Positions 36,849 to 64,000 of a stretch of 64,000 nucleotides of DNA are shown here, piece by piece. Under the pieces are notes generated by a model. The model was not told where the DNA came from. It made no database searches and saw only the letters and a list, made by a program, of their open reading frames with translations. The position numbers and the translations under genes were made by a program. This stretch comes from Elusimicrobia bacterium GWA2_66_18 (GTDB taxonomy: Bacteria; Elusimicrobiota; Elusimicrobia; UBA1565; UBA9628), in assembly GCA_001799675.1 (NCBI GenBank), contig MGTX01000016.1:9876-73875 (forward strand), read 5' to 3'. Positions within the stretch are counted from its first letter, which is position 1, and each line of letters starts with the position of its first letter.

Positions 36849-36864
36849 CGTGCCGCCGGCTCGT

Positions 36865-45466: not shown

Positions 45467-46297
45467 TCACCACGGCTGGTAGAACCGGCGGTCGTCCATC
45501 GGCGTCGGAACGGGGCAATCCTGCTTGCGAATGGCGAGGATCTTCGCGGCGAGCGCTTTGATGCTCTTGGCGAACGGCGACTTGGGAGCGCGCTCTACGA
45601 CGGTGTTCTTGCGGGCGAACTCCGCCTCGCGCACGGCCGGGTCGCGCGGCACGAACTCCAGGATGCGCGTGCCGAGGATCTTGGCGAAACGCTCGATGCG
45701 CCCGCGTTCCACCTTGCCGTCCTTGAGGTTGGCCACCAGGCCCGCGAGATAAACCCCGTTCGAAGCGTAGGTCTTGACCGACTTGGCGATGTTGTTGGCG
45801 GCGTAGAGCGCCATCAGCTCCTCTGAGACCACGATCACGATCTTCTCCGCGAAGCCCTTGCGCAGAGGCGCGGCGAAGCCTCCGCACACCACGTCTCCGA
45901 GGACGTCGAAGACCCGGGCGTCATAGCCCCCCTCCTTCAGGACTCCCAGGTCCTGGAGCGCTTCGAGCATCAGGGAGATCCCGCGCCCCGCGCAGCCCAC
46001 CCCCGGCTCCGGCCCGCCGGCCTCGACGCAGTCGATGCCGAGGCGGCCCTTGACCATGAGGTCGGAAGTCTTGAGTTCTCCATGATCGCGCACGCCGAAG
46101 ATGCGGGCGTACTTCTCCATGAAGGTCTCTATGAGCTCGCCATCAACGAGTCCCAGCGTGGAATCATGCTTGGGGTCGCAGCCGACATGGAGCACCTTGA
46201 GGCCCTGGAGGGCGTAGATCGAGCTCAGGTTCGAGGAGATGGTCGACTTGCCGATTCCGCCCTTGCCGAAGACGACGATGTTGTTCTGCATGCTCAC
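45467..46297 (-). CDS. NifH/BchL-family Fe-protein-like ATPase (copy 2)
   Basis: FGKGGIGKST, CDPKHDST, GVGCAGRGI, DVLGDVVCGGFAAP; 276 aa. Confidence 0.85.
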   Translation of the reverse strand: MSMQNNIVVFGKGGIGKSTISSNLSSIYALQGLKVLHVGCDPKHDSTLGLVDGELIETFMEKYARIFGVRDHGELKTSDLMVKGRLGIDCVEAGGPEPGVGCAGRGISLMLEALQDLGVLKEGGYDARVFDVLGDVVCGGFAAPLRKGFAEKIVIVVSEELMALYAANNIAKSVKTYASNGVYLAGLVANLKDGKVERGRIERFAKILGTRILEFVPRDPAVREAEFARKNTVVERAPKSPFAKSIKALAAKILAIRKQDCPVPTPMDDRRFYQPW

Positions 46298-47166: not shown

Positions 47167-47170
47167 GGCC

Positions 47171-48394
47171 TCACCGTCCTGCGCCCGCCGCTTCGCCGTG
47201 GAGCACCGCGGCGCAAAGCCGGTCCACGAGATGACGCAAGCCCGCGTACCCCAGGAACGGCCGCTCGTAGACCGGATGCTCCAGATAGTTTGGATAGCCC
47301 ATCGGCACGTGGAGCAAGTCGCTCTGGAAAAAACGGGCCGTGGGCGCCAGGCACAGCACGCGCTCGGATCCGGACGCCGACTGCGCGCCGCTCGCAGAGA
47401 GATCGCGCAGTCCCAGATCGACGCTGAGTTCGCGCAGGCGAGCCTCCATTTGCGAGTCCTCCTGAAGGATCAGGACGCCGCGGCCTGCAAGGAGGCGCAA
47501 GACGTGGGCCTCGGTATCGCGCACAGCGGCGGCGCTCTCCGCCTTGATGAAGGCCTTCGCGCGCGCCCGCCGCCCGACGCGGGCGGCGATCTTGAGCAGG
47601 AAGTCCTCGGTAGCCGACAGGCCCAAAGGAAGGTCGACCTCGCAGAGGGATACTCCCAGCCTGCGCGCCACGATGCGGGCCGCCTCGCGCGCGTAAGGCA
47701 TCGAGACCACCAGACCGGCGCGCTCCGCCGCCTCCAGTTCCGCGCGGCCGCCGCCGGAAAGCCAGACGGAAGTCACGCGCAGGCCGATAGCGCCCAGCAG
47801 GCGCTTGAGCTCCCGCAGGTTGCCGGCCGCGTCGGGTTCATCGCGGTCCTGAAGGTGCCCCACGATTGCCACCGCGTCCTGCCTGCCTCGTCCGGGACGC
47901 AGAGTCACCGCCTCGGCCAGGGCCGCGCAGGTCAGCGCGTAGCCGTCGAGCCAGGTTCCGCCCAGCGAGCGCGACGGGACATGACAGACCAGCGCGGAGG
48001 TCGCCCCGGCATGGCGCCGCGAGATCTCCTTCAGCGGGAAGCCCACCAGTTCGTGGAAGTCGAAGGCGGTCGAGAGCACGATGCCCGCGTCGGGCTGGGC
48101 GCAGACGTCGGCGAAGATCCTCTCGACGAGGCCGGACCGGTCCGCGGAAAGGCTCTGGACCTCCTCGCGCTGGATCTGGCCGGTATGCACGACGCGCCGG
48201 TATCCGATTGGAGGCAGAAGGCGGCAGCGGAGGTTGTGGCAATACTGCATCTCCGCCTTGGTGAAGACGCAGTAGGGACCGTCCACGATGAGATAGGAGT
48301 CGGAGATCGCGTCGACGGCGACATAGACGCCGTTGAGGAAAGGCAGCCGCAGGATGTCGTCCTTGGGTGCGACGGGAGCGATCATGCCTGCCAT
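47171..48394 (-). CDS. Nitrogenase component-1-like protein, NifK/NifN-like (set C)
   Basis: LPFLNGVYVAVDAISDSYLIVDGPYC N-terminal block. Start ambiguous (48394 or 48439). Confidence 0.6.
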   Translation of the reverse strand: MAGMIAPVAPKDDILRLPFLNGVYVAVDAISDSYLIVDGPYCVFTKAEMQYCHNLRCRLLPPIGYRRVVHTGQIQREEVQSLSADRSGLVERIFADVCAQPDAGIVLSTAFDFHELVGFPLKEISRRHAGATSALVCHVPSRSLGGTWLDGYALTCAALAEAVTLRPGRGRQDAVAIVGHLQDRDEPDAAGNLRELKRLLGAIGLRVTSVWLSGGGRAELEAAERAGLVVSMPYAREAARIVARRLGVSLCEVDLPLGLSATEDFLLKIAARVGRRARAKAFIKAESAAAVRDTEAHVLRLLAGRGVLILQEDSQMEARLRELSVDLGLRDLSASGAQSASGSERVLCLAPTARFFQSDLLHVPMGYPNYLEHPVYERPFLGYAGLRHLVDRLCAAVLHGEAAGAGR

Positions 48395-50112
48395 GGCTTC
48401 AGATACGCACGATGACGCGGGAAAGGACGCGCCTCGCACTTCGTCAGAAGACGTCTGCCGGTCCGGAGCAGGCCATCAAGACCGGGCTCGAAAACCTGCT
48501 CGGTGAAGCCCGGAAGAGCATGAGCCTCCAGGCGCGGATCATGATTGAAGTGGGAGAAAACCAGATCGATGCCCCGGCCCAGAGCGCGGTCGAGTTCGTC
48601 GCGCGAGGAGAAGGAGTCGAACTCGATGGTCCCCTGCCCGCTGGCCGTTTTGGGACGGCGCAACGACCGTGCGCGCCCCCCATCCTCGGCGCTCCAGACC
48701 AGGCAGCGGACGTTGAACCCCAGGTCGCAGAGCAGTCCCGCCACGGAGAACCCGAAAATACTCCCCACGGAGGCGAAGAGCCCGATGTCGATCCGGTCGC
48801 CGATGAGAGCGACGGTGCGGCGGCGACATTCGCGCCCCAAGGCGGCGAAAGCGTCCGCGCGCTCCTCCTGGGCGCTCTCGAACACGCGCGCGTCCCCCTC
48901 CAGGCCGAGGACGGAACTCACGCGCTCGAGCCAGCCCCGGGTCCCGCAATGACCGTAGGGCGGGTGGTAGCGCACCACGCGCAGGCCGCGGCGCAGAAAG
49001 ACCCCGTCTTCGATCTTCTCCCAACCGACCGGGTTGAGCCAGACGACGGCGCCGGCCGCGCCCATCGCGGGAGCCTTGTCGAAGTCGAGATTGGGGAAGA
49101 GCGTGCCGACCACGCGCAGGCCAAGCGCCTCGCAGAGCGCTCCCGCCTCGCGGCCCGCCGCCGCCGTGGGCACGCCCGCCAGCAGAACCGCCCGCGGATC
49201 GACCTTGGCGGAGGACCGTGTGCCGGCGATCATCTTCTCAATCATGTCCTCGTAGGCCGGACCGGGAGCGTGGGTCTTTGAGGTCCATAACACCGGCACG
49301 CCCAGTTCACCCTCGATGCGGTCGATAAACGGCTTCGGATTGTCGCCGATGAGTTCCGGCAGGCAGGTGGTTTTCAGATGGATGAAGGCCGGCTTCTCGT
49401 CGCGCGCCACCCGCTCGAGGGTCCGCCCCAGGATCTCCTGGGTGCGCCCGCCCACGACGTCCGCCTCGGTGATGGAGGTGTCCACGTAACCGTAGTCCCC
49501 GTCGGATCGCACGCGATTGTCGTCGGCGAACAGCCTCAGGAGGCCGATGGCGAGGAGCGGATTATTGAGGCGGCACTCGAGCGTGGCATGACTGACCTGG
49601 AAATAGCGGGCGCCGAAACTGACTTCCTGTTCCAGGAACCGCGCCTGGGGATAGACGAACTTCCAGAAATCCGGAGAGTGGTCGACTCGGCGGTAGTAGG
49701 TCTCGAAGCGCGACGCAACGCAGCTGCCCTGAGGATCGCTGTAGAGCAGACTGTCGCGTTTGAGCCGGGCGAGGAGGTCGGCGAATCGCGTCGCGGACGC
49801 TCCCTCGGCCATCGTCCGAACCAAGAGGAGCTCCTCTTGCGAGAGTTCTTCGCTCGGCGCCCGGGACGAGAACAGAAGCCCTCCCGTCCGATCCAGCTTG
49901 ATGCTCCACTCCAGACGCCGCGGCCCCTTGACCAGGGAGAACTCGACTTCCAGGCCCTTCAGCGCGGCCTTCTCCAGTTCCCAATCGAAGGGAGGCCCTC
50001 CGATGAGGCCCGAAAAATATTCCAGACCATCCTTGCCGAGACGGTGACGCGGCGAACGAGGTTCGTCGTCGCGCTTGCGCCGTCCTTCTGCGACCGCGGA
50101 ACCCTGCATCAT
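48382..50112 (-). CDS. Nitrogenase component-1-like protein, NifD/NifE-like (set C)
   Basis: 576 aa. IHLKTTCLPELIGDN block; paralog of the NifD-like domains above. Confidence 0.6.
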   Translation of the reverse strand: MMQGSAVAEGRRKRDDEPRSPRHRLGKDGLEYFSGLIGGPPFDWELEKAALKGLEVEFSLVKGPRRLEWSIKLDRTGGLLFSSRAPSEELSQEELLLVRTMAEGASATRFADLLARLKRDSLLYSDPQGSCVASRFETYYRRVDHSPDFWKFVYPQARFLEQEVSFGARYFQVSHATLECRLNNPLLAIGLLRLFADDNRVRSDGDYGYVDTSITEADVVGGRTQEILGRTLERVARDEKPAFIHLKTTCLPELIGDNPKPFIDRIEGELGVPVLWTSKTHAPGPAYEDMIEKMIAGTRSSAKVDPRAVLLAGVPTAAAGREAGALCEALGLRVVGTLFPNLDFDKAPAMGAAGAVVWLNPVGWEKIEDGVFLRRGLRVVRYHPPYGHCGTRGWLERVSSVLGLEGDARVFESAQEERADAFAALGRECRRRTVALIGDRIDIGLFASVGSIFGFSVAGLLCDLGFNVRCLVWSAEDGGRARSLRRPKTASGQGTIEFDSFSSRDELDRALGRGIDLVFSHFNHDPRLEAHALPGFTEQVFEPGLDGLLRTGRRLLTKCEARPFPRHRAYLKPWQA

Positions 50113-50260: not shown

Positions 50261-50887
50261 CTAGGCCGCCGGCTCTTTCCTGAAGACCAGGAAGAATCCG
50301 GGAACAGGATATTCGGAGGTTGCGCTCCCGCCTGAAGGGATGGCGAGGTCTTGATAGCGCCCGGAAAACCCGGCGTCAAGAAGCAGCTCGATCGTTTCCT
50401 TCTTGCCGCAGCTGCCGCTTATCAGCCGGTCCTGGTAATAGATGAGACGGCCCCCTGTTCCCAACATCCGCAGTATCTCCCGCGCATAGCGCGATGCGAC
50501 GCCCATGTCCCCTTTAGATTCGAACCTGAGCGAATTGATCATGATGATCAGATCCAGATCGCCGAAGGAATCCATGCCCGTCGCATAATCGCTTCTGGCC
50601 CTTTTCACTCTGATGTTATCGATGTGATTATTCCGGGCATATCTTCTCAGATGCTCCACCCAACGCACACGGCTATCCGTTGCGTGAACAAAACCTTTTT
50701 TTCCAACCAAGCCCGCGATCTTGACCGCGAAATATCCGGCTCCCGCTCCGATATCCGCCACTTTCATGCCCGGCTTCACAGCCATTGTTTTCAATTGGAG
50801 CCTGGCATCGGCAGAGCGATCCCTCACGCGATCCTCAGTCAACTGCCAGCCGGCATAATGGGGTCGGCGCTTAAGCGATTTGAGCAC
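50261..50887 (-). CDS. Class I SAM-dependent methyltransferase
   Basis: Motif I VADIGAGAGYFA; 208 aa; GTG start overlapping the upstream stop by 1 nt. Confidence 0.7.
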   Translation of the reverse strand: MLKSLKRRPHYAGWQLTEDRVRDRSADARLQLKTMAVKPGMKVADIGAGAGYFAVKIAGLVGKKGFVHATDSRVRWVEHLRRYARNNHIDNIRVKRARSDYATGMDSFGDLDLIIMINSLRFESKGDMGVASRYAREILRMLGTGGRLIYYQDRLISGSCGKKETIELLLDAGFSGRYQDLAIPSGGSATSEYPVPGFFLVFRKEPAA

Positions 50888-52935
50888 TATTGATCACCTA
50901 ACTCTGCGTGCCTGGGCTGGCTCGGTTTGCCCAGACACGCCATCAAGGCCGCCAACGCAGCGGCCTGCGCCCGGGTGCGAAGGGGTGTCTCGCTCGAGTA
51001 GCCGAAAGCGAGGTCGCCGACGGCCTTGTAGTACCGTGCGGCGCCTTGCAGCGGCTCGATGTTCACGATGAGAGCATCTTCTCCATCGTGAAGCGGCAAT
51101 CGTCGTGCGAGAGTCACGACCACCAAACGGCCCGGGCTCGGCTCGATGGAAGTGACGACAAAATCGGCGAGTCCTATATGAGAACCCGCTTGAGACAGCT
51201 GCGTTCGCACGCGTTCGGCGAGATCTGCGCTGGGAGAAGCGAGCGCTGCGCGACGCCTGCCCGCATCCGCGCAGCGCCGTTCCAGGCGATCGAAGGTTTC
51301 CCGGATGAGTTCCTTTTTTTTCCATGGCGGGAGCGTGGTCTTCATCAGATGGACGAGTTCGGCGGCGAACAGATCAGGACGCTTCGTGTCCAGCCCATGG
51401 CCGTCCACGAATTCCTTGAGCCAAGCATAGAGCGCGTCTCCCGAAAACACAGCATCCGGCATGACGCCGCGCAACGAGACGGCGCATACACGCACGATGA
51501 TGCCGCACGCGACGGCCGCATGACAATCCTTAAAGCGCCACGGCAGAAGCCCTGGGCGCGAGCGGAAGTCGGCCATCATGCCGTACGTCATCGCGACATC
51601 GTCGTAGCGCCTGCATACGATGCCGCCCTCATGCAGCGCCAATGCGGTGATCGGGGCTTCCTTGTGCAACTCGAGCGCCGAATAGAGCCAAGGCGCATTA
51701 GGACTGAATCCTCTGCTGATTCCTTCGTTGATCGTGATCTCGATGTCTTCCAGGGTCGTCCAAGGCGTGAAGGCGATGTAGCCCAGGGGCTGCGCGTAGT
51801 CGAAGCAAGCGGGATAGGCCGCCTTGAGACGGTCCGCCAGTTCCAAGCCCTGATCGATCTGTTGTGCGGTGACGCCCTTATTAAAACGAGCGTTCTCTCG
51901 CGGCGAGAAATGCTCGATGCCCATGCGGAAGAGGTTCAGCCGATGGCCGTATTTCTCGAGCTGGGGGAGCAATCTTTCAATATCGGCGCCGGCCCTCAAA
52001 AAGTCGTCTATTCGGGGCGCGAAAAAAAAATTCGAGGCGGGCAGGTCCAGTCCCATGATCATCTCGAAGAATTCGGCGATGCGCCTGAAGATACGGATGT
52101 CGCGCATGTTGAAACGGCCGCAATTGCGGCCTTGGGCGGCGGCGGTGCGGATGACCGCCGCGAACTGGGTGCGCGCGAGTTCGATGGGATCGGTCTGCAT
52201 CGAGCTCATGGCCGGATGGGTCGACGAGCAAAACGCGCAGCCTTTCCGGCGATCGCAGGCTGAAAGGTCGACGCCGCGATAAAGCGGGTTGCGGCTAAGG
52301 TCGGCGCGGTAATCGCAGGAGACGCCGCCGAGGATGGCCAGGAAAGGGCCGCACTCCCGAGCCTGCGGGTTCATCATGACCGCGTCGTAAATCGGCTCGA
52401 CCGCGCCTACGAAATAGCGGTCTTCGCGCCGCGGCAGACCCAGCCATTGCGACAGCCAGTCGGTCTGAAAGAAACGGAGAATGGGGATGTCCCGTTGGGA
52501 GATCGATTTTCCCCCAGACGCCTCCTTGCTCCAGCCTTCATGCTCCGCGATGAGATCGCACGCGGTCCGCTTCCCGGCTCGGGATTGGCGGTCATCCTCA
52601 GCGGACACGAGAAACTCGCCGCGCGGAACGGCCGTCTTCAAGAGTCGAAGCAGCTCCGGGCTCAGCGCCTCATTGATGAGGATATGCGTCGGAGCCCACT
52701 CGGCGAGGCGCCTCGCCAATTCGTCTTTGTCGCTTCGTCCGAGGACGGGCTTGTTCCAGACCTCGGTCGGGCTTTTCTTGAGCCCTTCGAAGCGGGCCCC
52801 CACGCACAACCAACGGGCTGCGATGCCGCCGCTTTCGGCAAAGCCTTTGTAGAAAGGGAAAAAGTCCGCCCACTCATTCCTCAAAGGCGAAGCGGCTACG
52901 AACTCGAGCAACAAAAGGCGCCTAGTGCCTATCAT
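50887..52935 (-). CDS. Large radical-SAM-like protein with non-canonical C-x23-C-x2-C motif (paralog 1 of 4)
   Basis: Conserved blocks GGVSCDYRADLSRNPLYRGVDL...GCAFC, GIEHFSPRENARFNKGVT (resembles the rSAM G-x-E-S/F-S...N-K-G motif), FTPWTTLED, PWRFKD. N-terminal Rossmann-like (possibly B12-binding-like) region. Start at the second Met. Confidence 0.55.
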   Translation of the reverse strand: MIGTRRLLLLEFVAASPLRNEWADFFPFYKGFAESGGIAARWLCVGARFEGLKKSPTEVWNKPVLGRSDKDELARRLAEWAPTHILINEALSPELLRLLKTAVPRGEFLVSAEDDRQSRAGKRTACDLIAEHEGWSKEASGGKSISQRDIPILRFFQTDWLSQWLGLPRREDRYFVGAVEPIYDAVMMNPQARECGPFLAILGGVSCDYRADLSRNPLYRGVDLSACDRRKGCAFCSSTHPAMSSMQTDPIELARTQFAAVIRTAAAQGRNCGRFNMRDIRIFRRIAEFFEMIMGLDLPASNFFFAPRIDDFLRAGADIERLLPQLEKYGHRLNLFRMGIEHFSPRENARFNKGVTAQQIDQGLELADRLKAAYPACFDYAQPLGYIAFTPWTTLEDIEITINEGISRGFSPNAPWLYSALELHKEAPITALALHEGGIVCRRYDDVAMTYGMMADFRSRPGLLPWRFKDCHAAVACGIIVRVCAVSLRGVMPDAVFSGDALYAWLKEFVDGHGLDTKRPDLFAAELVHLMKTTLPPWKKKELIRETFDRLERRCADAGRRRAALASPSADLAERVRTQLSQAGSHIGLADFVVTSIEPSPGRLVVVTLARRLPLHDGEDALIVNIEPLQGAARYYKAVGDLAFGYSSETPLRTRAQAAALAALMACLGKPSQPRHAELGDQ

Positions 52936-53025
52936 CCCATCTCCGCGGTGTCGCATCCGCCTTCCTGAAAAACGTCCGATCAACGGTCCCCTGCGCCCGT
53001 GAATATTTCTCAGCGCTGCACATGA

Positions 53026-54543
53026 TTATTTCCGTCGGGCGCTGCGAAGGAGATCGAGCAATTCGAGCGCCGAGCTGGTTGTGGGATGGCGCTTGATGGT
53101 CTCGATGGCTTCTCGGAAGAGTGGCAGCGGGTCGAATGGCCCCGGCGGCGACTCCTTGATGAAGGCATCTGCCGCCAGTTTCTCAGGGTCATCTGCCGGG
53201 ATGTTGAATCGGTCGGATGACAGTCTGCGCGCGAGACGCCACAGGATCGCGACTTCCGAGTGAGCGAAGCGCCAGGGGATTTCGTTGCGGTCTGCGTCGT
53301 TATTGCAGCCGGCGTTGTAGAAAATGCTCTCGCTCTCCTTGACCAAGAGGCCGTCTTGCTCGGCAAGGAGCGTAATGGGGACATCCCGGAAGAGCATCAA
53401 TCGCCGGCTGAGCGCGAAGGCGCGGTCGATCAAGCGGCAGCGCTCGATATTGTCGAGGTTGATGCGCAGGTCCTCCGGCGTTGTCCAGGGGGTGAAGAGA
53501 ATCATGCCCAATCCTCCAAACGGCAAGCGGAACTGCGCGGGCCAGCGCGCGTTGGTATCGATCAGGAAGGCGGTTGCTTCATGGACCTGCTCCGCCGTGA
53601 TTCCTTTGTGCAAGCGCCTATTTTCATCCGGTGAAAAATTCTCCACGCTCAGACCGTTGATGCGTAATGCCGCGCCATTTTCGGCCAGCAACGGCAGGCA
53701 GCGCTCAATGACTCTACGCGCATTGAGCAATTCATCCAACCGCAGCATGAAATTAAGCTCGACTCCGCAGACTCCGCGCTGGACCAGAGCGCGGACGAGT
53801 TCCTCAAAGCGTCTCCAGAGTTCGAAGCCGCACAAATTGATGCGTTTTTCGACGCCCGGCGTTGGCCGCTGACGGCAGACCGACTCAATCTGCTTCACCG
53901 CAAAGGCCACCGAGTTCTCAATGTTCCAATGGGAGCTCCTTAAATCGGGCATCGCGCAAAAGGAGCAGCCCATGCTCACCGACGGAAGCTGGAGGCGTCG
54001 GTAGAAAGGATTGCGGGCGACGGGCGCGCGGTAAGAGCAGCGAGAGCCGCCCACAACCTCGATCACCGGGTTGATCGCCCATAAGGCTTGGTTGAGGATC
54101 TTGCGGCGGTAGATCGGCTGGATCCTGTCGAGCAGGCGGGCATCATCGAGCACGGAGCCCCGAGCCTCCGGGATGCGATGCCGGACGTAGTCGGCGATAT
54201 CTGGAAGGTCCTCGGTCAGGGCCCAGTAGACGAGACGTGCGCCAGGGACGACCGCCGAGATGTCGGATAGCTGTTTTTTGGGCAGGCGTGCGTTGAGCAC
54301 GACAACCTGAGGCTTGCGGCGGGCCGCCTCGGCGAGCAAGAGCCTGAGATCTCGTGGCGTCAAGGTATATCGGAGGGTAGGGGCATAGCGCACTCCAAGC
54401 ACGCACCAGTAAGCTCGCCGCCCCAGCAGACGACTCAGTCCCATCAAGAATGGATAGGCGCTAGTCCGGGCATTTTGCATGACGGCATCGGTCAGCAAAT
54501 CAACGAGCATCCAGCAGGAAGAATCAATGGTGTTCGAACTCAT
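53026..54543 (-). CDS. Radical-SAM-like protein with non-canonical Cys motif (paralog 2)
   Basis: GGSRCSYRAPVARNPFYRRL...GCSFC, GLSVENFSPDENRRLHKGIT, FTPWTTPED, PWRFAHSE; 505 aa. Confidence 0.55.
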   Translation of the reverse strand: MSSNTIDSSCWMLVDLLTDAVMQNARTSAYPFLMGLSRLLGRRAYWCVLGVRYAPTLRYTLTPRDLRLLLAEAARRKPQVVVLNARLPKKQLSDISAVVPGARLVYWALTEDLPDIADYVRHRIPEARGSVLDDARLLDRIQPIYRRKILNQALWAINPVIEVVGGSRCSYRAPVARNPFYRRLQLPSVSMGCSFCAMPDLRSSHWNIENSVAFAVKQIESVCRQRPTPGVEKRINLCGFELWRRFEELVRALVQRGVCGVELNFMLRLDELLNARRVIERCLPLLAENGAALRINGLSVENFSPDENRRLHKGITAEQVHEATAFLIDTNARWPAQFRLPFGGLGMILFTPWTTPEDLRINLDNIERCRLIDRAFALSRRLMLFRDVPITLLAEQDGLLVKESESIFYNAGCNNDADRNEIPWRFAHSEVAILWRLARRLSSDRFNIPADDPEKLAADAFIKESPPGPFDPLPLFREAIETIKRHPTTSSALELLDLLRSARRK

Positions 54544-54644
54544 AAGAGCATGAGAAAAAAAGCATATCCGCGTCGATCTTTCAAAAGAAATTATAGATCA
54601 TATGAAAGCGTTCGTCGGGGAAAAGGGACCCGGCTGAGTTATGG

Positions 54645-55535
54645 TTGTCGGGAGAACCCTGGAGTGATAATATGTCCGACAGGGATCGGATCGGAGGGCT
54701 GGTGCCCAAAGTTACTGTTGTTTTTAAGGAGCTCGGGTGCGGTTTTAAATGTCCCTTCTGTGATGTTTGGGCCAATGATGCCAGTGACGCTCCGCCTGAT
54801 TTAACCGAACTCTCTGATGCGGTGCAGACACTCCTAGAGGGACAGAAGCAGCAAGATGTTCTTGAGTGTGTCCTGAGCGGTCCGGAGCCGCTGGCTTCAC
54901 CGGTATTTTTTAAGGTGCTGGCGGCGGCGCGAAGGTTGGGGTATGCGAATATCCGTCTTAATACGAATGGGATACGACTAGCCGATAGAGCGTTAACCCA
55001 GCAGTTGGCTCGCTGCGGGATCCGGGGTGTCGACATCCCTGTCTATGGAAGCAATGCCAAGCTGCATGACCGAATGACTGGAATGGCGGGAAGTTTTATC
55101 CTGCTCATGAAGGCAATAGATAATTTGAGGAACTGCCCAGGGATTCGAATTGAGGTTGTGCATACCGTCATCCTAAAACAGAATCTCCGTGATCTTTCGA
55201 AGTTGTGCGCTCGGACCAAGGATCTTGGGCTGCCGAAGTTGGAGATTTGGATGCCTTTTGCTCGCCCGTCGGCCAACGAGCTGAGTAGGCTGCGAGACAT
55301 TTGTCCATCTTTGACAGATGTCGGGAAGGCCTTGCGACGAATTCCATCGGAATTCTATCGATTTCTCGGGATGCCTCTCTGTCTATGTCCACCACAGGTC
55401 CCACTGGGAGTCTCTCTCCGCGGGTTCCAATATGCGCGGAAATGCCAAGGTTGCACGATGCGTGCCGCATGCGTTGGTGTTCGTGAGAGTTACTTACTGC
55501 TTTATGGAGACAAAGAGCTCCGTCCCTTTCGCTAG
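54645..55535 (+). CDS. Small radical SAM enzyme (rSAM-5), paralogous to the SPASM/twitch rSAMs. Locally low GC, with a degenerate GGE motif
   Basis: CGFKCPFC (CX3CX2C). SGPEP replaces the SGGEP SAM-binding motif. C-terminal CQGCTMRAAC. The gene sits in a ~1-kb GC trough (about 52% vs 66%). Confidence 0.65.
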   Translation: MSGEPWSDNMSDRDRIGGLVPKVTVVFKELGCGFKCPFCDVWANDASDAPPDLTELSDAVQTLLEGQKQQDVLECVLSGPEPLASPVFFKVLAAARRLGYANIRLNTNGIRLADRALTQQLARCGIRGVDIPVYGSNAKLHDRMTGMAGSFILLMKAIDNLRNCPGIRIEVVHTVILKQNLRDLSKLCARTKDLGLPKLEIWMPFARPSANELSRLRDICPSLTDVGKALRRIPSEFYRFLGMPLCLCPPQVPLGVSLRGFQYARKCQGCTMRAACVGVRESYLLLYGDKELRPFR

Positions 55536-55612
55536 AGGCGCGGTAGAGTCCGACGATCGGGCGCTGCCGGCTCAGAGGCCGCGCCGTCGTCTCGATTGAG
55601 GGGGCTTGGCCC

Positions 55613-55912
55613 TTGCGCGTGAGTGCGCCGATAACCTTGAATGAGATGCGCTCGCTGTTGATCGAGCGGCCGACGGGGTCCCGGTCGCCGAATAGATTCG
55701 CGACGACGGCCGGCCCCAACAACGAAGCAGGAGAAATTGCGCGCAGAAACTCGGGTCTTGAATTATTCCGGGAGCTGGAGCTCGCCGGGAAAATGGGCGC
55801 GCGCTGCGTCGACGGCCTGTCCGAGAGCGACGTCACGCCGCTGAAGGCTTGGCCGGCGAGCCGGGGCGCGGCGGAGCACATCCACGCGCAGGAGGTCCTG
55901 TGCGGAAGATGA
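55613..55912 (+). CDS. Hypothetical 99-aa protein, translationally coupled (ATGA) to the downstream SGNH hydrolase gene
   Basis: ORF MRVSAPITLNEMRSLLIERPTGS...; its stop overlaps the ATG at 55909. No domain recognised. Confidence 0.3.
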   Translation: MRVSAPITLNEMRSLLIERPTGSRSPNRFATTAGPNNEAGEIARRNSGLELFRELELAGKMGARCVDGLSESDVTPLKAWPASRGAAEHIHAQEVLCGR

Positions 55913-57000
55913 CGCCGCTCGCCAGACTCGTCGCGGCGGGCGACCTCGCGCTCTCGGCCCTGGCCGCCTTTTTCGGGCTTCGCTTCCTCGTGATCGCGGT
56001 CTTTTTGGGCTCGATGACTGAGGGCCGCCTCCCGGCGGCGGGCTTCGTCCTCCTCACGGCGACGCCCTTCGCCTTGGCGGCGGCCTCCGTCGTTCTGCTC
56101 ATGGCCCAAGGCGTGTCGAGGACCAAGATTCTGGGGACCTGCGGGTCGTTCGGGGCGATCGGTCTTGCGCTCGCCCTATGGCCGGCCATGATTATGACCA
56201 ACCCGAATGATTTGGGGCTGGCCTCGCAAGGCGCAAATATCAGCTATGAGTTTGACTTTTCGCGCGACGCCAACAAGGATAACTACCCGCTGTGTCGCTA
56301 CCGGAACAACAGCCTCGGCTACCGTGATGAGGAACCGCCCGTCGCGCTCAAGAAGGGGGAGCGGCGAATACTGCTTGTCGGCGACTCGTACATCTGGGGC
56401 GACGGCATCCCCGTCAATGAGGAAACCCTTGCCTACCTTCTGCGTGCTGAGCTGGCACGGCTGGCGCCCGGGCGCTTCAGCGTGATGAGCGCGGCCTATC
56501 CCGGACTAGGGTTTTACGGCTACGGCCGGTTGATCGACGTGCTCTGCGCGCGCTACGACCCGGAGGTCGTCGTGGTGGGCTCTCTGGGCGAAAGCGACTG
56601 CGATCCCTTCGATGCCCAGTATCTGCTGGACCATCTTCCGCGTCTCTGGCTCGTCCGCAACCTGGTGCTGAACCTCGGGGCGGCTCAATATCTGCATGAG
56701 GCGTCGGTAAGCCGCTTCTCGCCGATATGGACCAGCGCCGAAAACCGGGAATACTTCGCGGCGTTGACGCGCGACTTTTCGCTGAAGGCGCTCGAGCGGG
56801 GTTATCGCCTGATGTTCCTGTCCTACTTCCCTCACCCGTCGCTGCCGGAAGGCATCGAGACGCTGGATCTGCCCGAGGACCTGCGCTACCCGTGGCATGC
56901 CAGCGACCTTTGGTACGCCAAGGACTTCCATCCCAAGACGAAGCTCAATCGCATCCTGGCAAAAATGATCGCCGAGAAGATCATCCAGAAGGGGCTCTAA
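55909..57000 (+). CDS. Membrane-anchored SGNH/GDSL-family hydrolase
   Basis: Three N-terminal TM helices, then LLVGDSYIWGDG (GDS-x block I). Confidence 0.6.
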   Translation: MTPLARLVAAGDLALSALAAFFGLRFLVIAVFLGSMTEGRLPAAGFVLLTATPFALAAASVVLLMAQGVSRTKILGTCGSFGAIGLALALWPAMIMTNPNDLGLASQGANISYEFDFSRDANKDNYPLCRYRNNSLGYRDEEPPVALKKGERRILLVGDSYIWGDGIPVNEETLAYLLRAELARLAPGRFSVMSAAYPGLGFYGYGRLIDVLCARYDPEVVVVGSLGESDCDPFDAQYLLDHLPRLWLVRNLVLNLGAAQYLHEASVSRFSPIWTSAENREYFAALTRDFSLKALERGYRLMFLSYFPHPSLPEGIETLDLPEDLRYPWHASDLWYAKDFHPKTKLNRILAKMIAEKIIQKGL

Positions 57001-57036
57001 TGCAAAAGATTTTAGTATATTACCTATACTTTACCA

Positions 57037-59982
57037 ATGAACCGGGACGAAGGCATCGTGCTCATCGAGTTCGTCGCCCTGGGACGATTTAATGTCGCCG
57101 GCGAATTCCCGTTCATCCACGCCTGGCTGAAACACAGCTTGCATATTCCCGTCTTGTGGGTGCGTTTCGCGCTCAATCCTGATGTGCGTTTCGGCAGCCG
57201 CGAAAGCGGAATCAGCTTAAAAACCGCCGATATGGGAGCCCTCCTCAAACTGGTCCGCAATTGCGCAGCAAGACGAGCGCTTTTTAACTTTCAGCCGTCG
57301 GCGTCTCTATGGCGGAAGTTCCAGTCGGAGCATCCGCGGGTCGATGGCCGTTTTTTCTCAAGTGGGAATGCGGCGCAAGACGGGAGAGGATCGAAACGTC
57401 TGCGGCCTCTGCGGCAGGACGGCCAAACGTTGGTGCGCTGGCTGGGTCTTAAAACCGAAGAAGTGAAATCCTCCTATATGGCGGAAAAGCCCGATTTTGG
57501 CTTCATCGCGGGAAACCGTGAAGCTCGGATGATGCAGCCACTGGCGTTCGTCCACGGCGGACAGGAGTGCGTCTATCGCAAGAGTGTCGTTGGCAACCCG
57601 GCCTACGCGGGCGTCGACCTCACGGGCGCTAGGACCGAGGGATGCGCTTTCTGCGTCAGCGGGGCCGGCGTCGGCGCCGACCAACCTCGCCGCGCTCCAA
57701 CCGTCGAGGACGCGTTGCGTCAGATCGATGCATTCTTCCGCACGTATCCACTGCACGACGTCCGTTCGCGCCCTAGGCTGAGGATGTCGGGGCAACAGCT
57801 GCTCCTTGAGGTCGAAACGCTGACCGCACGCATGTCTCAACTCGATTTTCCCCCCTGCGACCTGCTGTTTGACGCGCGCATAGACTACCTGCTGAAGTTA
57901 AAGGACCGATTAGCGGGGTCGGCCAAGCGCCTGAAGGGCACCGGCCACAAAGTCCATATCTGTCTTGTCGGATTGGAGAATTTTTCGTTCTCCGAGCTTC
58001 AACGGATGAACAAGGGAATCACCCCGGCCCAGAGCCTTGCCGCGATCCGCATTCTGCGAGACATTGAACGAGCCTACCCGGAAGAATTCGGCTTTGAGGA
58101 ACACGGCGGTCTTTCGACTATTTTTTTTACGCCCTGGACCACGCTCGATGACCTGGCTCTGAACTTCTCCATCGTAAGCCATTTCCGACTCGAGAGCCTA
58201 TGCGGAAAGAGACTGACGTCACGGGTCCGGCTCTACGATGGGTTGCCTCTGACGGCTCTCGCCCGGCACGACGGGCTCATCGTCAACCGCTATGACGACG
58301 CAACGTTCGACACGGCACGGCTTAATTTCTACCCCGATGAGATCAAATGGAGATTCAAACATCCGGAGGTGTCGCAGATCAATCGGATCACGCTGCGCAT
58401 GGACGTCAATCCGGCCCTTGAGTCAGACCCCTTGTATGCGCGCGTGCAATCATGGCTCAAGACGACGATCGCCGCCGGCGCCTCTCAGGCGCAGTGCATC
58501 GTGGACCTCGTCGGCCGCGCGCTGTCGCACCGCGGCCCCGTCACAGCCGAGGCGCTGCTGGAGCCGCCGGCAGAGAAACCGCCATTGGAATTGTCGAATC
58601 TTTCGATGCCGGATATAGAACCCACGAAAAGCCTTCTCCTGAAGCTGAAGTTACAGCGCGCCGGCTTCGCCAGCGTCAGTCGTCTGGAGCACCTGGATCC
58701 CGAGTCGGCCGAACGGCTTGGCCGGCAACTGAGAGAGAAAGGCGGCGAGGTCATCGTCGTGCCGCGGCGCCAAGGAGACGCCTCCAAAAAAACGTGGGAT
58801 GTTTTTTTCGGCCCGCGCTCCGGCGATGTGGCGGAGGCGGCCCGTTTAACGAACGTGCAATACGCCTCAGCGAGTAATACTAAGACGAGCGCCGCCAAGC
58901 GGCGCATTGGGGAGTTGTACGGCTATCCTAAGTGTTGCGCCCGAGCCTTCGCCTCGTTTCGTTGTTCCTCGCCTTACTTGAACGAGTGGATGATCCTGCT
59001 TCGTCGCTGCGAACATCCGGGGCCGATCGACCCGCTCCTCAATCCATTTTCCGGTCACGTCATCTATGTCCCCTGTTCGGTGCGCTGCCAAACGAGCATC
59101 CGGCGCTCCCGAGAGCTCCTCAAACTGTCCTCCCGCGCGTCTCATGACCCCGTGAAGGCCTCGCTTAAACATCCCTTTTTATTTCTCCTCGACCGGATCG
59201 GGGAATATGTCGAGTTGATCCCGCAGGGAGCGGTGAGCGGGAGTTTTGATTTTATAGCCGGGGTCATTAAAGGGCATGATCCAGAGCTTCTCGCCCTGGC
59301 CGGGGGCGGGACAATCACCATCGCCGAAGGGATCATCGTTGTCCACCGCGATGGCGTGCGGGTGGCAAGCTTTATAATGCGGGCGGCGGTCTGGTGGCAT
59401 CAGCAGGCCTTCGACTTTGAGTTCTGGCGCGAGTGTTCCGCGGAAATTCTTGAGCGTCTTCCCGAGACGACGCGCCCCTCGGAAACCGTTGAGCCGGTTT
59501 CCAGGCCTCCCGCAAAGCCTCCCCCCCAAGCCGCTGAAGCGAAAAAAGAGAAGCCTCCCGCGCCGCAGAAGACGACGGCCGCAGTCGACACAGCTTGGCG
59601 CCTATTTCTGGCCGACTTGGATGCCCAGTTTCACCGCAGCCAGCACAGCCCCTGCCGAAGCCGTTATGACGGAGAGATTCTGTCCGTGTCTTTGGGGAAC
59701 AAGAGTTTGCCCCTGTTCCCGGTCTCGAAGGATTCGCCCTGCAGCGCCTACTATGCGCAGACCCCCAACTTTTACATCTGCATCCGCGGCAAGAGCAAGA
59801 TGTCGGATTCAGAGCAGCGCCATCTGCGGATCTATCTGGAGATGCTGTCTCAACGTGATGAGCTGCTCAAAGTCCTCCTCCGTTCCGCAAAAATTTCGGG
59901 CGCACATTCCGCCAAAATCCGCCTCACCCGAGCGGCGCAACCCGGCCCTCCCCGAACGCGGATGCCTCCAGAGCGTTCCTGA
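57037..59982 (+). CDS. Radical-SAM-like protein with non-canonical Cys motif (paralog 3; 981 aa with a Cys-rich C-terminal extension)
   Basis: GGQECVYRKSVVGNPAYAGVDL...GCAFC, GLENFSFSELQRMNKGIT, FTPWTTLDD, KWRFKHPE. Extra C-terminal ~450 aa including YGYPKCCARAF...CSVRC. Confidence 0.55.
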   Translation: MNRDEGIVLIEFVALGRFNVAGEFPFIHAWLKHSLHIPVLWVRFALNPDVRFGSRESGISLKTADMGALLKLVRNCAARRALFNFQPSASLWRKFQSEHPRVDGRFFSSGNAAQDGRGSKRLRPLRQDGQTLVRWLGLKTEEVKSSYMAEKPDFGFIAGNREARMMQPLAFVHGGQECVYRKSVVGNPAYAGVDLTGARTEGCAFCVSGAGVGADQPRRAPTVEDALRQIDAFFRTYPLHDVRSRPRLRMSGQQLLLEVETLTARMSQLDFPPCDLLFDARIDYLLKLKDRLAGSAKRLKGTGHKVHICLVGLENFSFSELQRMNKGITPAQSLAAIRILRDIERAYPEEFGFEEHGGLSTIFFTPWTTLDDLALNFSIVSHFRLESLCGKRLTSRVRLYDGLPLTALARHDGLIVNRYDDATFDTARLNFYPDEIKWRFKHPEVSQINRITLRMDVNPALESDPLYARVQSWLKTTIAAGASQAQCIVDLVGRALSHRGPVTAEALLEPPAEKPPLELSNLSMPDIEPTKSLLLKLKLQRAGFASVSRLEHLDPESAERLGRQLREKGGEVIVVPRRQGDASKKTWDVFFGPRSGDVAEAARLTNVQYASASNTKTSAAKRRIGELYGYPKCCARAFASFRCSSPYLNEWMILLRRCEHPGPIDPLLNPFSGHVIYVPCSVRCQTSIRRSRELLKLSSRASHDPVKASLKHPFLFLLDRIGEYVELIPQGAVSGSFDFIAGVIKGHDPELLALAGGGTITIAEGIIVVHRDGVRVASFIMRAAVWWHQQAFDFEFWRECSAEILERLPETTRPSETVEPVSRPPAKPPPQAAEAKKEKPPAPQKTTAAVDTAWRLFLADLDAQFHRSQHSPCRSRYDGEILSVSLGNKSLPLFPVSKDSPCSAYYAQTPNFYICIRGKSKMSDSEQRHLRIYLEMLSQRDELLKVLLRSAKISGAHSAKIRLTRAAQPGPPRTRMPPERS

Positions 59983-60004
59983 GTCGCCGGGAGAAAACAA
60001 CGAC

Positions 60005-61993
60005 ATGCGCCTGATGCTGATCGAATTCTTTCGAGGAGCTCTCCGCCGCAACGAGCGGAGCATGATCTTCCCGTTCCTCAAGGGACTGGCGCGGGAGCGC
60101 GGCTTCAAGACGCTCTGGCTCTGCTACGGGGGAGACATGGCGCATCAGGACGGCGCCGCCGTGGGACGCACGCTCTTCGCCGCGCTGCCGGACGAGGACC
60201 TTCGTTCGCTCGCCCGGCGCCTGGAGCGATTTCGCCCCAGCCACGTGGTGACCAGCGACCGCATGAGCCGCGGGGCGACGGAAATCCTAGCGTCGCGCAC
60301 GCCGCCGCCTAAGCATCTCGTCATGCCGCTGACAGACGAACTGCCGGGAGGCTACGATCAGCGCGGCGACTTCGCCCATTGCGGCTGGTTTCTCGACTGG
60401 CTGGGCTGCGGTGATCCTGCGGCCTCTCGGCGCTACATCGCCGAGCATCCCGCCCCCGATTACTCCGCCGTGCTGGCCAACAAGGCTGCGCGCCGCGCTA
60501 AGCCGCAGATCACTATCGTCAGCGGGACGCTGTGCGCGTATCGGCGCACTTTGGCGGGCAACCCGTATTTCGAAGACGTAAACCTCGGCGGGGAGGCTCA
60601 TCGAGGATGTTCATTCTGCTTGTGCTCGACCATCCCCCCCGTCACGGCGCCGCAAACGCCGATTCTACCCCTCATAGAGACCCAGTTCCGAAGGATATTG
60701 CAGACCGCCGGCAAGGCCGGCCGGAACAAGGGTCGCTACGAGTTCTTCGACATCCGCGCGTTCTGGAAGTTCGACGAGCTCTTTCAGCTCCTCCTGCGCC
60801 TGAAGGTGCCTCCGTCGATATTCCTCTTCAATCCCCGCATCGACGACGTCCTTCGCCAGCGCGTCCGCATCGAGCGCGTCCTGCCGGCGCTGGCGAAAGC
60901 CGGCCATCAGGTCCGGATGCTGAGCATGGGCGTGGAAAACTTTTCCGAGAACGAAAACGCGCGCTTCAACAAGAGGATCGTCCTGGAGCAGGTGGATGAG
61001 TTCCTCGCCATGACGAAGGAATGGGAGAGCGCCTATCCCGGCGTCTTCCGGCCCTTCAAAGCGGGAAACGCCGCCGCCGAACTCGGGTTCATCCTGTTCA
61101 CCCCTTGGACGACTCTCGCCGACGTCCGCGTCAACCTGGACGCCGCGACCTCCCGAGGCTTCCCCAACTGCGGCTACTGGCTGTATTCGATCCTGCTCCT
61201 CGATTCCGCGACTCCCATATTCCACTTGGCGGAGAAGGAAGGGGACGTGCTGACAGACCGGTTCCCGGACCCCGGTCAGTTTTACGGATTGTTCAAGAAC
61301 GAAGGGCAACTCGAGGATGTGCGCCCCTGGCGCTTCAAGGACGCGAAAGTCGCGGATTATTTCGCCCTGCTTGTGCGCGTCTGCGCCGCCGAGCGTGAGG
61401 GGAAAGACTGCGCCCATTTCCGCGACGACCCTGTTTTCTCCCTGGCCGAGCGCCTCTACCGTGAGGCGAACGAACCCCCTGCCGCCGCGACCAAACCGCT
61501 GCAGATCGCATTCTCCCTGCTCGAACTGATGGAAACGGCGCGCCCGCCTTTCTGCCGCGAGACGCTTCTCCAGGAGGCCGTCGCCCGCGCGGCGGCGCTC
61601 ACGGCGGCGCGGCGCGCGGCGTCCGCGCCTCCGCCCCCGCTCTCCGTCAGGGGCAAAGCCATCGAGCGCGTCGTGGACCTGCTGCGCGCCGCCCGCCCCG
61701 GGATGTTCGCCGGCATGGAGTTCGAGTCAGTCCGGGAAGTCGTCCTGCGGGGCTCGCGCAGCATTCTTCTCACCTTATCGATGTCCGGCCGGAAGCTGGT
61801 CGTGGCTCTACGGGACGCGCGTTCCCATAAGCCGTGTTTTCTCCGGTCGCGCCGATTCCGGGCCTCTTATCTTAAGGATTCGCCCACCCCCTCGCCACGC
61901 GAGCGCCAGCAACTAGCGCAGCTCCTCCGTCTCCTCGACGCCGGCGTCAGTCGCCGAGAATCTCCTCGGGCAGGCGGCCGAACTTCGTCTTGA
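60005..61993 (+). CDS. Radical-SAM-like protein with non-canonical Cys motif (paralog 4)
   Basis: Start at MRLMLIEFF (ATG 60005), which aligns with the N-termini of the other paralogs. SGTLCAYRRTLAGNPYFEDVNL...GCSFC, GVENFSENENARFNKRIV, FTPWTTLAD, PWRFKD. The track ORF from 59417 is an upstream artefactual extension. Confidence 0.55.
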   Translation: MRLMLIEFFRGALRRNERSMIFPFLKGLARERGFKTLWLCYGGDMAHQDGAAVGRTLFAALPDEDLRSLARRLERFRPSHVVTSDRMSRGATEILASRTPPPKHLVMPLTDELPGGYDQRGDFAHCGWFLDWLGCGDPAASRRYIAEHPAPDYSAVLANKAARRAKPQITIVSGTLCAYRRTLAGNPYFEDVNLGGEAHRGCSFCLCSTIPPVTAPQTPILPLIETQFRRILQTAGKAGRNKGRYEFFDIRAFWKFDELFQLLLRLKVPPSIFLFNPRIDDVLRQRVRIERVLPALAKAGHQVRMLSMGVENFSENENARFNKRIVLEQVDEFLAMTKEWESAYPGVFRPFKAGNAAAELGFILFTPWTTLADVRVNLDAATSRGFPNCGYWLYSILLLDSATPIFHLAEKEGDVLTDRFPDPGQFYGLFKNEGQLEDVRPWRFKDAKVADYFALLVRVCAAEREGKDCAHFRDDPVFSLAERLYREANEPPAAATKPLQIAFSLLELMETARPPFCRETLLQEAVARAAALTAARRAASAPPPPLSVRGKAIERVVDLLRAARPGMFAGMEFESVREVVLRGSRSILLTLSMSGRKLVVALRDARSHKPCFLRSRRFRASYLKDSPTPSPRERQQLAQLLRLLDAGVSRRESPRAGGRTSS

Positions 61994-62085
61994 ACCAGCG
62001 CAGGCAACATTCACGAACGCATATGTTACCATGAACTCCCAATGGACATCGCCCACGGCCGATGATCGCTCGCACGCCGGAAAAG

Positions 62086-64000
62086 TTTGTTTTTTTTCGG
62101 TAAGGGTGGGAGCGGCAAGTCGACCCTTTCGTCGAACCTGAGCGCGATTTACGCCCGCTCCGGCTTGAGCGTCTTGCATGTCGGCTGCGACCCCAAGCGC
62201 GACTCGACCGTCCTGCTCGTCGAGCGCCCCAAAGCCAGGACGATCCTGACCCCGCGGGGAGAATATCTCGGGATCGCTCCGGCATCGGAGTTCCTGATGC
62301 GCAGCCGTCTCGGGCTGGACTGCATCGAGGCCGGCGGACCTGAGCCGGGAGTCGGGTGCGCGGGCCGGGGAATCAGCAAGATGATCGAGGTCCTCCAGCG
62401 GGATCGAATCATCGAACGCGGGGGCTATGAGATCGTCGTCTTTGACGTGCTGGGAGACGTGGTCTGCGGCGGCTTCGCCGCGCCCCTGCGCCTCGGGTTC
62501 GGCGAAAAAGTCGTGATCGTCGTAAGCGAGGAGGCGATGTCGCTTTACGCCGCCAACAACATCGCGCATGCGGTCCGCAACTACGCGTCCAACGGCGTCG
62601 GACTCTGCGGTCTCCTCGCCAATCTCCGCGACCCCGCCGCCGACATCGGACTCATCGAGCGCTTCGCGCGCCGCATCGGCACCACGCTTGTTGGAGTCGT
62701 GAGCCGTGATCTCGCCTTCCGCGAAGCGGAATACCGCGAGCGCTGCCTGACGGAGATCGCGCCGCGCTCGAAAGCCCTGCGAAATCTAGAGAGGATCGCC
62801 AAGCGACTGCGGACCTCGGATCGACGCAAGCTCACGGCACCGACGCCCTTAACTGAATCCGAATTCTACGAAGCAAGCCGCCGCCGCTTCACCTTCAATG
62901 GGCGACGGCGTCCGGTCCCCGCGGTGTCCGTTGCGGCTCCGACCCCCGGCGGGACGGCCGGCCCGCCCGCAGAGCCTGCGCCTACGCGACCCGAGCGCCC
63001 GGCCGGGCCTCCAGGCACGCCAACGCCGGCGGCAGAGGAAGGCGCGGCGTCGGGCCGGCCCCCTCCCTATAGCCGCTGGATGATGTGGACGTGGGGCGTG
63101 GACGAGCAGTGGCGCCAATTCTTCGCGAACCCGGAGCTTGAACTCCTTTCGGCAAAACCGCTCTTGCGCAATGTCGCCTACGTCGTGCAGAAGGAGTTGG
63201 AGTGTTTCTTCGTCGAGGCGCGAACCGACGATGGAAGCGCGAATTTTTTCAACCACCCCTGGCCCGATCATTGCTCGGCCGGCCTGCCCCTTGCCTCCGA
63301 ACTCAGGCAGCTCGGCTGCCGCCAGATCGTATCCGACATCAAGGACGGTGAGATCATCCTCGGCGGCGCCCGAAAGCTGGAAACGGTCATGTCCGGCCTC
63401 GTCCGGGAACCGGGCGCGACCGAGTTGACGGTATTCCTCACCTCGTGCCCCGCGGTCGTCATTGGCGACGATAATGCCTCGGTCATCGAGCGCTTCCGTC
63501 TCCGGTCGGGCCTCCCCACCCTCTTCCCCGATCGCGATGCGGACCAGCACACGGACCTGCTGGGGGACCTCTTCACGCTCGCGTGCAAAAGAGGCCGACC
63601 GGCCTCTAAACCGGAGGGCCCCCGCCTCAACCTCGTCGGCTTCCCCCGGGACCGCACCCTCGTCGAGCTGACCCGGCTGCTCGGCGACCTGGGAATTACG
63701 GTCAACAGCTGCCTGCTTCCCGAGTTCGACCTCGAGAGCATCTCCCGCTATCGGGACGCCGATCTCCAGGTCGTGAGGCCTCACCGCGCCTACGAGGGGG
63801 TCCAGGCGGAGATCCTCGATAAACTCGCGATCCCGACGCTCCTCATCGAGCCCCCCTACGGGATGGGAGGCGCCCGCCGTTGGTTGAGCGAGATCGCGAA
63901 GTTTTTCGATCTCCAAAACCGCTGCGAGGAACTCTGGGCCGAGCGATGGTCGGGATCTCGGCAAAGGTGGGAGGCGCTGAGGCGTCGAGCGTGCGACCAC
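62086..64000 (+). CDS. Fourth NifH-like ATPase fused to a NifD-like domain (second HD fusion). Partial: continues beyond the window end
   Basis: Manual translation: (TTG)FFFGKGGSGKSTLSSNL...CDPKRDST...GVGCAGRGI...DVLGDVVCGGFAAP, then a Pro/Ala-rich linker and a WMMWTWGVDEQWRQFF block paralogous to the 38143..40443 linker/NifD domain. No ATG in frame; the start is either TTG 62086 or the ATG at 62061 after a shift within the T8 homopolymer. Confidence 0.7.

Follow-up and report, generated by a model that had tools for sequence, protein, structure and literature searches.

A deeply divergent, unannotated branch of the radical SAM superfamily with a widely spaced cysteine motif, encoded in a nitrogenase-like gene cluster of an Elusimicrobia bacterium

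The first spacer of the cluster-binding motif of radical S-adenosylmethionine (SAM) enzymes is already known to vary, QueE having CX14CX2C and HmdB and HcgA having CX5CX2C, and the structure of QueE from Burkholderia multivorans shows that its site is the canonical one, with an insertion that lengthens the loop between Cys1 and Cys2 (PMC4389238). Group VI nitrogenase-like gene clusters, in which radical SAM genes are found, are in the available portions of a 2026 review still listed as having an unknown function (PMC13474568). Here, we analyse a stretch of 64,000 nucleotides (hereafter the window, to which all positions refer) of contig MGTX01000016.1 from Elusimicrobia bacterium GWA2_66_18 (assembly GCA_001799675.1), in which four paralogous proteins, A, B, C and D, are encoded among nitrogenase-like and canonical radical SAM genes. 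A-D belong to a branch of the radical SAM superfamily that is deeply divergent and has no name, and we suggest, with a probability of roughly 0.7, that they are putative [4Fe-4S]-binding, SAM-cleaving radical enzymes that use a C-x23-29-C-x2-C motif.

Paralog A (50887..52935, minus strand, 682 aa), which belongs to an A-type subfamily, begins with a Rossmann-like domain, continues with a radical SAM-like core and ends in a tail of ~150 aa. Paralog B (53026..54543, minus strand, 505 aa) is the minimal member of the family and the protein used for the structural model; its start in public gene calls is Met12, giving a protein of 494 aa. In paralog C (57037..59982, plus strand, 981 aa) the family core at approximately residues 1-480 precedes a DUF483-like domain with four Cys, behind which lies a C-terminal tail, and paralog D (60005..61993, plus strand, 662 aa) is of a D-type subfamily. 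A sequence-only reading of this DNA had proposed these four open reading frames (ORFs) as paralogs with shared sequence blocks. All four are present at these coordinates, their pairwise BLASTP identities are 29-35% with E-values of 1e-33 to 1e-96, and their alignment contains the invariant blocks GG/SG-x-x-C-x-YR, NP, GC[AS]FC, E-x-FS-x-x-E-x-x-R-x-x-K, FTPWTT-x-x-D and WRF. The G+C content at third codon positions (GC3), which that reading had put forward as a check on whether the genes are real, is highest in the annotated frame for each of A-D (0.70-0.80 in frame, 0.45-0.67 out of frame).

The segments that carry the conserved cysteines are CDYRADLSRNPLYRGVDLSACDRRKGCAFC in A (52228..52317, minus strand; C207-x25-C233-x2-C236), CSYRAPVARNPFYRRLQLPSVSMGCSFC in B (53956..54039, minus strand; C169-x23-C193-x2-C196), CVYRKSVVGNPAYAGVDLTGARTEGCAFC in C (57568..57654, plus strand; C178-x24-C203-x2-C206) and CAYRRTLAGNPYFEDVNLGGEAHRGCSFC in D (60533..60619, plus strand; C177-x24-C202-x2-C205). 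The spacing of C-x23-C-x2-C that had been claimed for all four proteins is exact in B and is x25 in A and x24 in C and D; in A, the distal Cys that had been reported is present, and an additional Cys at position 227, six residues before Cys2 and generating C-x5-C-x2-C, had been overlooked. The absence of the canonical first Cys stands, in that no Cys is found at position -4 in any of A-D or in the wider family and a canonical CxxxCxxC directly after strand beta-1 is therefore lacking, and so does the conservation of the upstream Cys, which is invariant in 50/50 homologs and in 182/182 aligned cores. Among these 182 family cores C169, C193 and C196 (B numbering, as used below) are each 100% conserved, and no other Cys or His is universal. 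This three-Cys pattern is far beyond chance.

The spacing between Cys1 and Cys2 ranges from 23 to 29 residues in the family with a mode of 25, and the insert varies in length solely in its second half, after the conserved C-x-YR-x5-NP-x-[FY]-x-G-V-D-L, as expected of a loop that is anchored at both ends. The residue ahead of Cys3 is F in 88% and Y in 10% of the cores, i.e. aromatic in 98%, giving the CxPhiC pattern; in known radical SAM enzymes this aromatic residue stacks on the adenine of SAM. A search for CX22-26CX2C motifs gave no match in the searchable literature.

The assignment of A-D to the radical SAM superfamily is based on structure and profile comparisons. The sole significant Foldseek matches are the B12-dependent enzymes OxsB (2e-11) and MgmA (2.7e-8), with a probability of 1.00, and the structural matches score 15.0 for AprD4 (346 residues aligned), 14.2 for RimO, 13.5 for OxsB, 13.2 for CysS, 13.0 for both TsrM and MgmA, 12.3 for MiaB and 9.6 for HemN. 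Using a class-B profile made of 27 canonical class-B radical SAM domains taken from related loci, hhalign aligns the family with a probability of 97.5% in local mode (E 8e-12) and 98.9% in global mode (E 1e-16) over 395-428 columns that cover both domains. In this register GC[SA]FC coincides with the second and third Cys of CxxxCxxC, MGvENFSxxENxRFNKG with GxESgs...K/Rg, and ILFTPWTT with i.g.P.ET (G-x-P-x-E-T). Comparison of the family with a single class-B sequence by hhalign gave no match. A jackhmmer search from a class-B query also reached the family; its E-values were not used, as the iterated profile may itself have come to include members of the family.

Each paralog thus has a class-B-like architecture, with a Rossmann-like N-terminal domain of the B12-binding type followed by a radical SAM core with the fold of a partial (beta/alpha)6 TIM barrel. 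The radical SAM core proposed in the sequence-only reading is borne out by these comparisons, and of the N-terminal domain that had been likened to those of BchE and BchQ the Rossmann-like fold is retained, while we find neither a match to PF02310 nor a specific relationship to BchE or BchQ. Scans of A-D against NCBIfam gave no family model and, together with the Pfam scans, stray weak matches to the ArsL and CUAEP models. A match to 'GCAFC' of AhpD in the search of PDB sequences was rejected as a short motif coincidence.

The regions that contact SAM in related enzymes are the most conserved parts of these proteins (95-100%). Over the 182 cores, the beta-4 block has G299 at 97% and E301 at 99%, followed by N302, F303 and S304, and the beta-5 block has I348 at 95%, T351, P352 and W353 both at 100%, and T354 at 97%; the two blocks align in hhalign with the class-B ribose and GxIxGxxE motif regions. 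R268, K313 and W424 are each conserved at 99%, and H291, an Ala in B, at 90%. In the model of B, strand 160-164 (VIEVV) leads into a loop at residues 165-207, which contains all three Cys, and helix alpha-1 then spans residues 208-224. The loop is modelled with confidence, the predicted local distance difference test (pLDDT) score being 80-93 over residues 161-200, and residues 174 and 191 are isolated bridge residues. Judging by strand order in the core, we infer that strand 160-164 is barrel strand beta-1, and with C169 five residues past it the model suggests that this Cys is placed where the canonical Cys1 would lie. By analogy with QueE, the simplest reading would be an insertion of ~20 residues between Cys1 and Cys2.

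Combining the conservation data with the model, we suggest that in each paralog three Cys would hold one [4Fe-4S] cluster, in which the distal Cys would be the canonical first ligand, far in sequence and near in space as in the C-x14-C-x2-C motif of QueE, and would be separated from Cys2 by a structured insert of ~20 residues (x-YR-x5-NP-x-[FY]-x-G-V-D-L and a variable stretch). The open iron of the cluster would bind SAM, and the reduced cluster would split it to a 5'-deoxyadenosyl radical that attacks the substrate.

A number of observations speak against this mechanism and have to be weighed with the rival explanations. In the Pfam searches that had been proposed for these proteins the scores of A-D for Radical_SAM (PF04055), 13.8-21.4 bits, are below the gathering threshold of 29.5 and the B12-binding family PF02310 is not matched; a hidden Markov model (HMM) built from canonical class-B proteins alone found fused canonical domains and no family cores, so that profile-profile comparison is needed to detect the relationship. 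A GGE motif is not recognisable, beta-2 ending in D in 48% and in G in 43%. An alternative Cys at -6 is present in about one third of the members, A included, and in the hhalign alignment, where confidence is locally low, the Cys1 segment falls on the linker of class B and not on beta-1 and Cys1. With regard to gene context, counted as genes within 10 kb of a family member at 83 loci, NifD/K-like genes are found at 24/83 and NifH-like genes at 20/83 loci; as only ~30% of the loci have nitrogenase-like genes at this distance, the link to them is not obligatory. The most radical conclusion from such data would be that the proteins have no kinship with radical SAM enzymes and that the GCxFC and ExFS blocks arose convergently in another fold. 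In favor of this are the sub-threshold Pfam scores and the scores against PDB sequences, which the family profile matched at best in OxsB with an E-value of 0.08. A different fold had also been named in the sequence-only reading as what would overturn it, but Foldseek (OxsB and MgmA, probability 1.00) and hhalign (97.5-98.9%) both place the family in the radical SAM fold, and we regard convergence as effectively refuted, with a negligible residual probability.

Two further explanations accept the fold. In one, A-D are scaffolds that bind a cluster and do not cleave SAM, serving as electron-transfer or substrate-presenting subunits that aid canonical radical SAM enzymes, for which TsrM, with a radical SAM fold and no radical chemistry, provides a partial analogy. 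Such a role would fit the canonical radical SAM genes within 10 kb at 42/83 loci, the canonical domain in the same polypeptide as the family core in at least 8 family proteins and in a protein of Polyangium, the missing GGE motif and the low Pfam scores; yet the aromatic residue before Cys3 is retained in 98% of the cores, the beta-4 and beta-5 motifs are retained with E301 at 99% and T354 at 97%, and exactly three conserved Cys leave one iron open, as a SAM-binding cluster needs. We consider this alternative unlikely. In the other, the distal Cys is not a ligand and is instead catalytic, part of a disulfide or a ligand of a second metal, the cluster being bound by CxxC together with the -6 Cys as in HcgA and HmdB or with a non-Cys ligand. 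This explanation draws on the C-x5-C-x2-C of A and of about one third of the wider set and on the hhalign register, in which 'P.v.I.GxxCxYR...NP.F.glDL' of the family faces 'ipGv..R....l.alP' of the class-B linker and class-B beta-1 and Cys1 are left as an insertion. However, B, C, D and most members lack the -6 Cys, which occurs in just 35/75 A-type proteins, the distal Cys is 100% conserved, no other possible ligand is universal (H291 reaches 90% and is replaced in B), and the model has the distal Cys right after strand 160-164. We therefore judge it quite improbable and favor the distal Cys as a ligand of a SAM-cleaving cluster. The alignment of the distal Cys to the linker makes a separate evolutionary origin of this ligand possible; in such a history, beta-1 and Cys1 may have been deleted and a Cys of the linker recruited.

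With a word index over 5.8 billion proteins, 51 relatives were recovered, mostly from metagenome-assembled genomes of Elusimicrobia; nearly all are without a precomputed Pfam domain (given as '-') and are called 'hypothetical protein' where the source gives a name. When 1.84 billion cluster representatives were searched exhaustively with an HMM, 636 had E<=1e-30 and 793 had E<=1e-10; the family comprises ~640 representatives at 50% identity and has no Pfam or NCBIfam model. In a scan of species-representative genomes, with a query from a 21-sequence subset alignment, 79 loci were found in Elusimicrobiota and Myxococcota and, in addition, in Bradymonadales, Oligoflexales and Binatia. Cultured Myxococcota with the family are Polyangium fumosum DSM 14668 and P. 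jinanense SDU13; several Polyangium sp. also have it.

The 182 cores fall into A-like (75 members), B-like (22 members), C-like (28 members, 22 with the DUF483-like domain) and D-like (57 members) subfamilies. The nearest relatives of each window paralog are different proteins in other genomes, showing that A-D belong to separately conserved subfamilies and are not recent duplicates. At about 22/83 loci two to five family copies occur within 10 kb. Family cores are fused in tandem in P0052-54 and P0067, to a NifD/K-like domain in P0022 (locus L001; D-type subfamily) and P0153, and to canonical radical SAM/SPASM domains with CxxxCxxC in 8 proteins and in the Polyangium protein mentioned above. 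The latter is encoded at 9545-12382 (plus strand) of locus L059 of P. fumosum DSM 14668, where the flanking genes encode a class-B radical SAM protein (5513-8161), a DUF483-like protein (8165-10225, minus strand) and a class-V aminotransferase or cysteine-desulfurase-like protein, and no nitrogenase-like gene is found within 10 kb.

In the window, A-D are part of one large nitrogenase-like and radical SAM cluster from ~28.7 kb to beyond 64 kb, with nitrogenase-like genes (Pfam Fer4_NifH, Oxidored_nitro) on both sides of them. B, A and a gene for a PCMT-like SAM-dependent methyltransferase (50261..50887, minus strand) are co-directional with the adjoining nitrogenase-like genes, two NifH-like and two NifD/K-like genes (45467..50112, minus strand) lying directly downstream of the B-A-methyltransferase transcription unit. 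The stop codon of A and the GTG start of the methyltransferase gene overlap by 1 nt (50885-50889, minus strand), suggesting that the two are probably translationally coupled. A PCMT-like methyltransferase is also encoded near the C-type homolog P0044 (locus L003). The divergent arm comprises a canonical radical SAM gene (54645..55535, plus strand; CGFKCPFC, Pfam 57 bits), divergent from B and with a GC3 of 0.54, a gene for a membrane-anchored protein with a weak SGNH/GDSL-like match (55849..57000, plus strand) that lies between it and C, then C and D, and a NifH-like/NifD/K-like fusion (62066..64000, plus strand). This fusion begins 73 nt after D and its ORF exceeds the window end, so that the cluster extends past 64 kb. 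The G+C content is 0.58-0.60 over window positions 50001-60000, which include A, B, C and their neighbors, and 0.64-0.69 in the flanking nitrogenase-like genes.

NifH-like sequences are found at 45467-46297 and 46294-47166 (both minus strand), at the N-terminus of 38143-40443 and from 62066 onward, and NifD/K-like sequences at 36865-38142, 38143-40443, 42368-43651, 43701-45188, 47171-48439 and 48382-50112 and in the C-terminal part of the ORF from 62066 onward. The gene at 38143-40443 (minus strand) encodes a NifH-NifD/K fusion of 766 aa with 268 bits for Fer4_NifH and 96 bits for Oxidored_nitro. Further canonical radical SAM genes are located at 28754-30337 and 34144-35208; two others encode fusions, with TP_methylase (tetrapyrrole-methylase superfamily, PF00590) at 35151-37190 (minus strand) and with four Sel1 repeats at 40455-42632 (minus strand). 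The true start of the former is probably near 36850, as the listed ORF start overlaps the neighboring NifD/K-like gene. TPR-rich proteins are encoded within the cluster at 30189-32381 and 32360-34207. Positions 1-28 kb of the window contain unrelated housekeeping genes; a small protein encoded at 4373-5089 (minus strand) matches the activation domain of B12-dependent methionine synthase, a hint of cobalamin enzymes in this organism.

Against the NCBIfam models for NifH and CfbC, the NifH-like proteins reach 207-277 bits, far below the cutoffs of 394-402, and the tandem NifH-like genes (45467-47166) score equally on both models, which fits a separate nitrogenase-like group. With non-equivalog NifH-like proteins, NifD/K-like proteins and many radical SAM genes in Elusimicrobiota and Myxococcota, the context is that of Group VI, and the flanking genes are of Group VI type as assigned by gene content, NCBIfam scores and taxa.

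The DUF483-like domain of C (residues 521-800; 58597..59436, plus strand) matches Pfam DUF483 weakly (E 2e-4) and has four Cys in an invariant GYPxCC ... PCxxxC. Its AlphaFold2 model has a pLDDT of 90.2, and a structural search with this model gave no functional match; a literature search for DUF483 returned only other DUF numbers matched by prefix. In an iterated search the domain was found C-terminal to the core in C-type proteins, N-terminal to it in P0050 and P0051, in three copies in P0067, and as an adjacent gene in Polyangium-type loci, consistent with the domain being a recurrent partner of the family by fusion or adjacency. The last ~100 residues of C form a tail module (59590..59883, plus strand) that shares 54-66% identity with A-type ortholog tails from other genomes (P0002, P0004, P0006 and P0007) and no such identity with the tail of the window paralog A, and a word-index search with the C-terminal half of C found as homologs just two A-type protein tails. 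From this pattern of similarity, tail modules may have been exchanged among paralogs.

As for the reaction, the four subfamilies would most likely carry out successive or alternative radical steps, or form hetero-oligomers, on a common substrate, which they would share with the Group VI nitrogenase-like reductases, the canonical radical SAM/SPASM enzymes, the DUF483-like domain and the methyltransferase. A tetrapyrrole-like cofactor would be one candidate, in view of the proteins that neighbor the nitrogenase-like ones in phylogenies and of a single fusion with TP_methylase. Alternatively, a peptide substrate would also fit the SPASM-type neighbors and the PCMT-like methyltransferase; the gaps around A-D (<= ~310 bp) leave no obvious room for a precursor-peptide gene, as judged by eye and not by a scan for small ORFs. 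We regard it as an evenly balanced proposal that the family is a new functional class, in which the structured insert of the C-x~25-C-x2-C loop possibly shapes the active site or a partner interface and in which sets of several paralogs would cooperate with a DUF483-like metallodomain of four Cys and with Group VI nitrogenase-like reductases driven by ATP to make a cofactor or natural product in Elusimicrobiota and Myxococcota.

Inventories of radical SAM enzymes lean on the CxxxCxxC motif and on Pfam or InterPro, and this family of ~640 clusters of 'hypothetical proteins' escapes both. It is a new, sizeable, unannotated family in a known superfamily, central to an unsolved nitrogenase-like system, and of the unannotated components of Group VI nitrogenase-like clusters it is the largest. 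If our interpretation of the distal Cys is true, the range of cluster-binding motifs is widened to a spacer of 23-29 residues, and if A-D are radical SAM enzymes the number of radical enzymes at this locus approximately doubles, four being added to at least five canonical ones in the window. The homologs in the cultured P. fumosum DSM 14668 and P. jinanense SDU13 make experiments feasible.

Among described systems, the Group VI nitrogenase-like clusters of groundwater Elusimicrobia and Myxococcales (Meheust et al. 2020) come, in the portions of that source available, from the same taxa and have the same gene content of NifH-like, NifD/K-like and radical SAM genes. In the available portions of that paper and of the 2026 Chem Rev review, radical SAM neighbors are given via Pfam-detectable domains and the present family is not described; lacking a Pfam domain, it would have appeared there as hypothetical proteins. 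Of the known radical SAM enzymes, the methylthiotransferases MiaB and RimO were rejected as a functional parallel, since the N-terminal domain of the family is without the conserved Cys triad, which leaves no methylthiotransferase-type auxiliary cluster, and the Pfam scan gave no TRAM match. AprD4 (PDB 6fd2), a radical SAM diol dehydratase that is cobalamin-independent, is the best structural match and differs in its canonical Cys motif, in having 14% identity and in belonging to an aminoglycoside biosynthesis pathway. Compared to the class-B enzymes OxsB, TsrM, CysS, MgmA and TokK, the family is without the canonical CxxxCxxC and a PF02310 match and has its own invariant residues (R268-x-D270, PWTT, WRF and Q218) and a distinct C-terminal region. 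The likeness to HcgA and HmdB consists of the C-x5-C-x2-C in paralog A and ~1/3 of the family; HcgA, however, is a small single-domain enzyme of another pathway, and its CX5CX2C was rejected as the family motif since the -6 Cys is not conserved and is absent from B, C and D. QueE offers the precedent for the extended loop, and in comparison with it the present family lies in another branch of the superfamily, has a Rossmann domain at the N-terminus and carries an insert that is approximately twice as long (23-29 versus 14 residues) and is itself conserved (YR...NP.[FY].GVDL).

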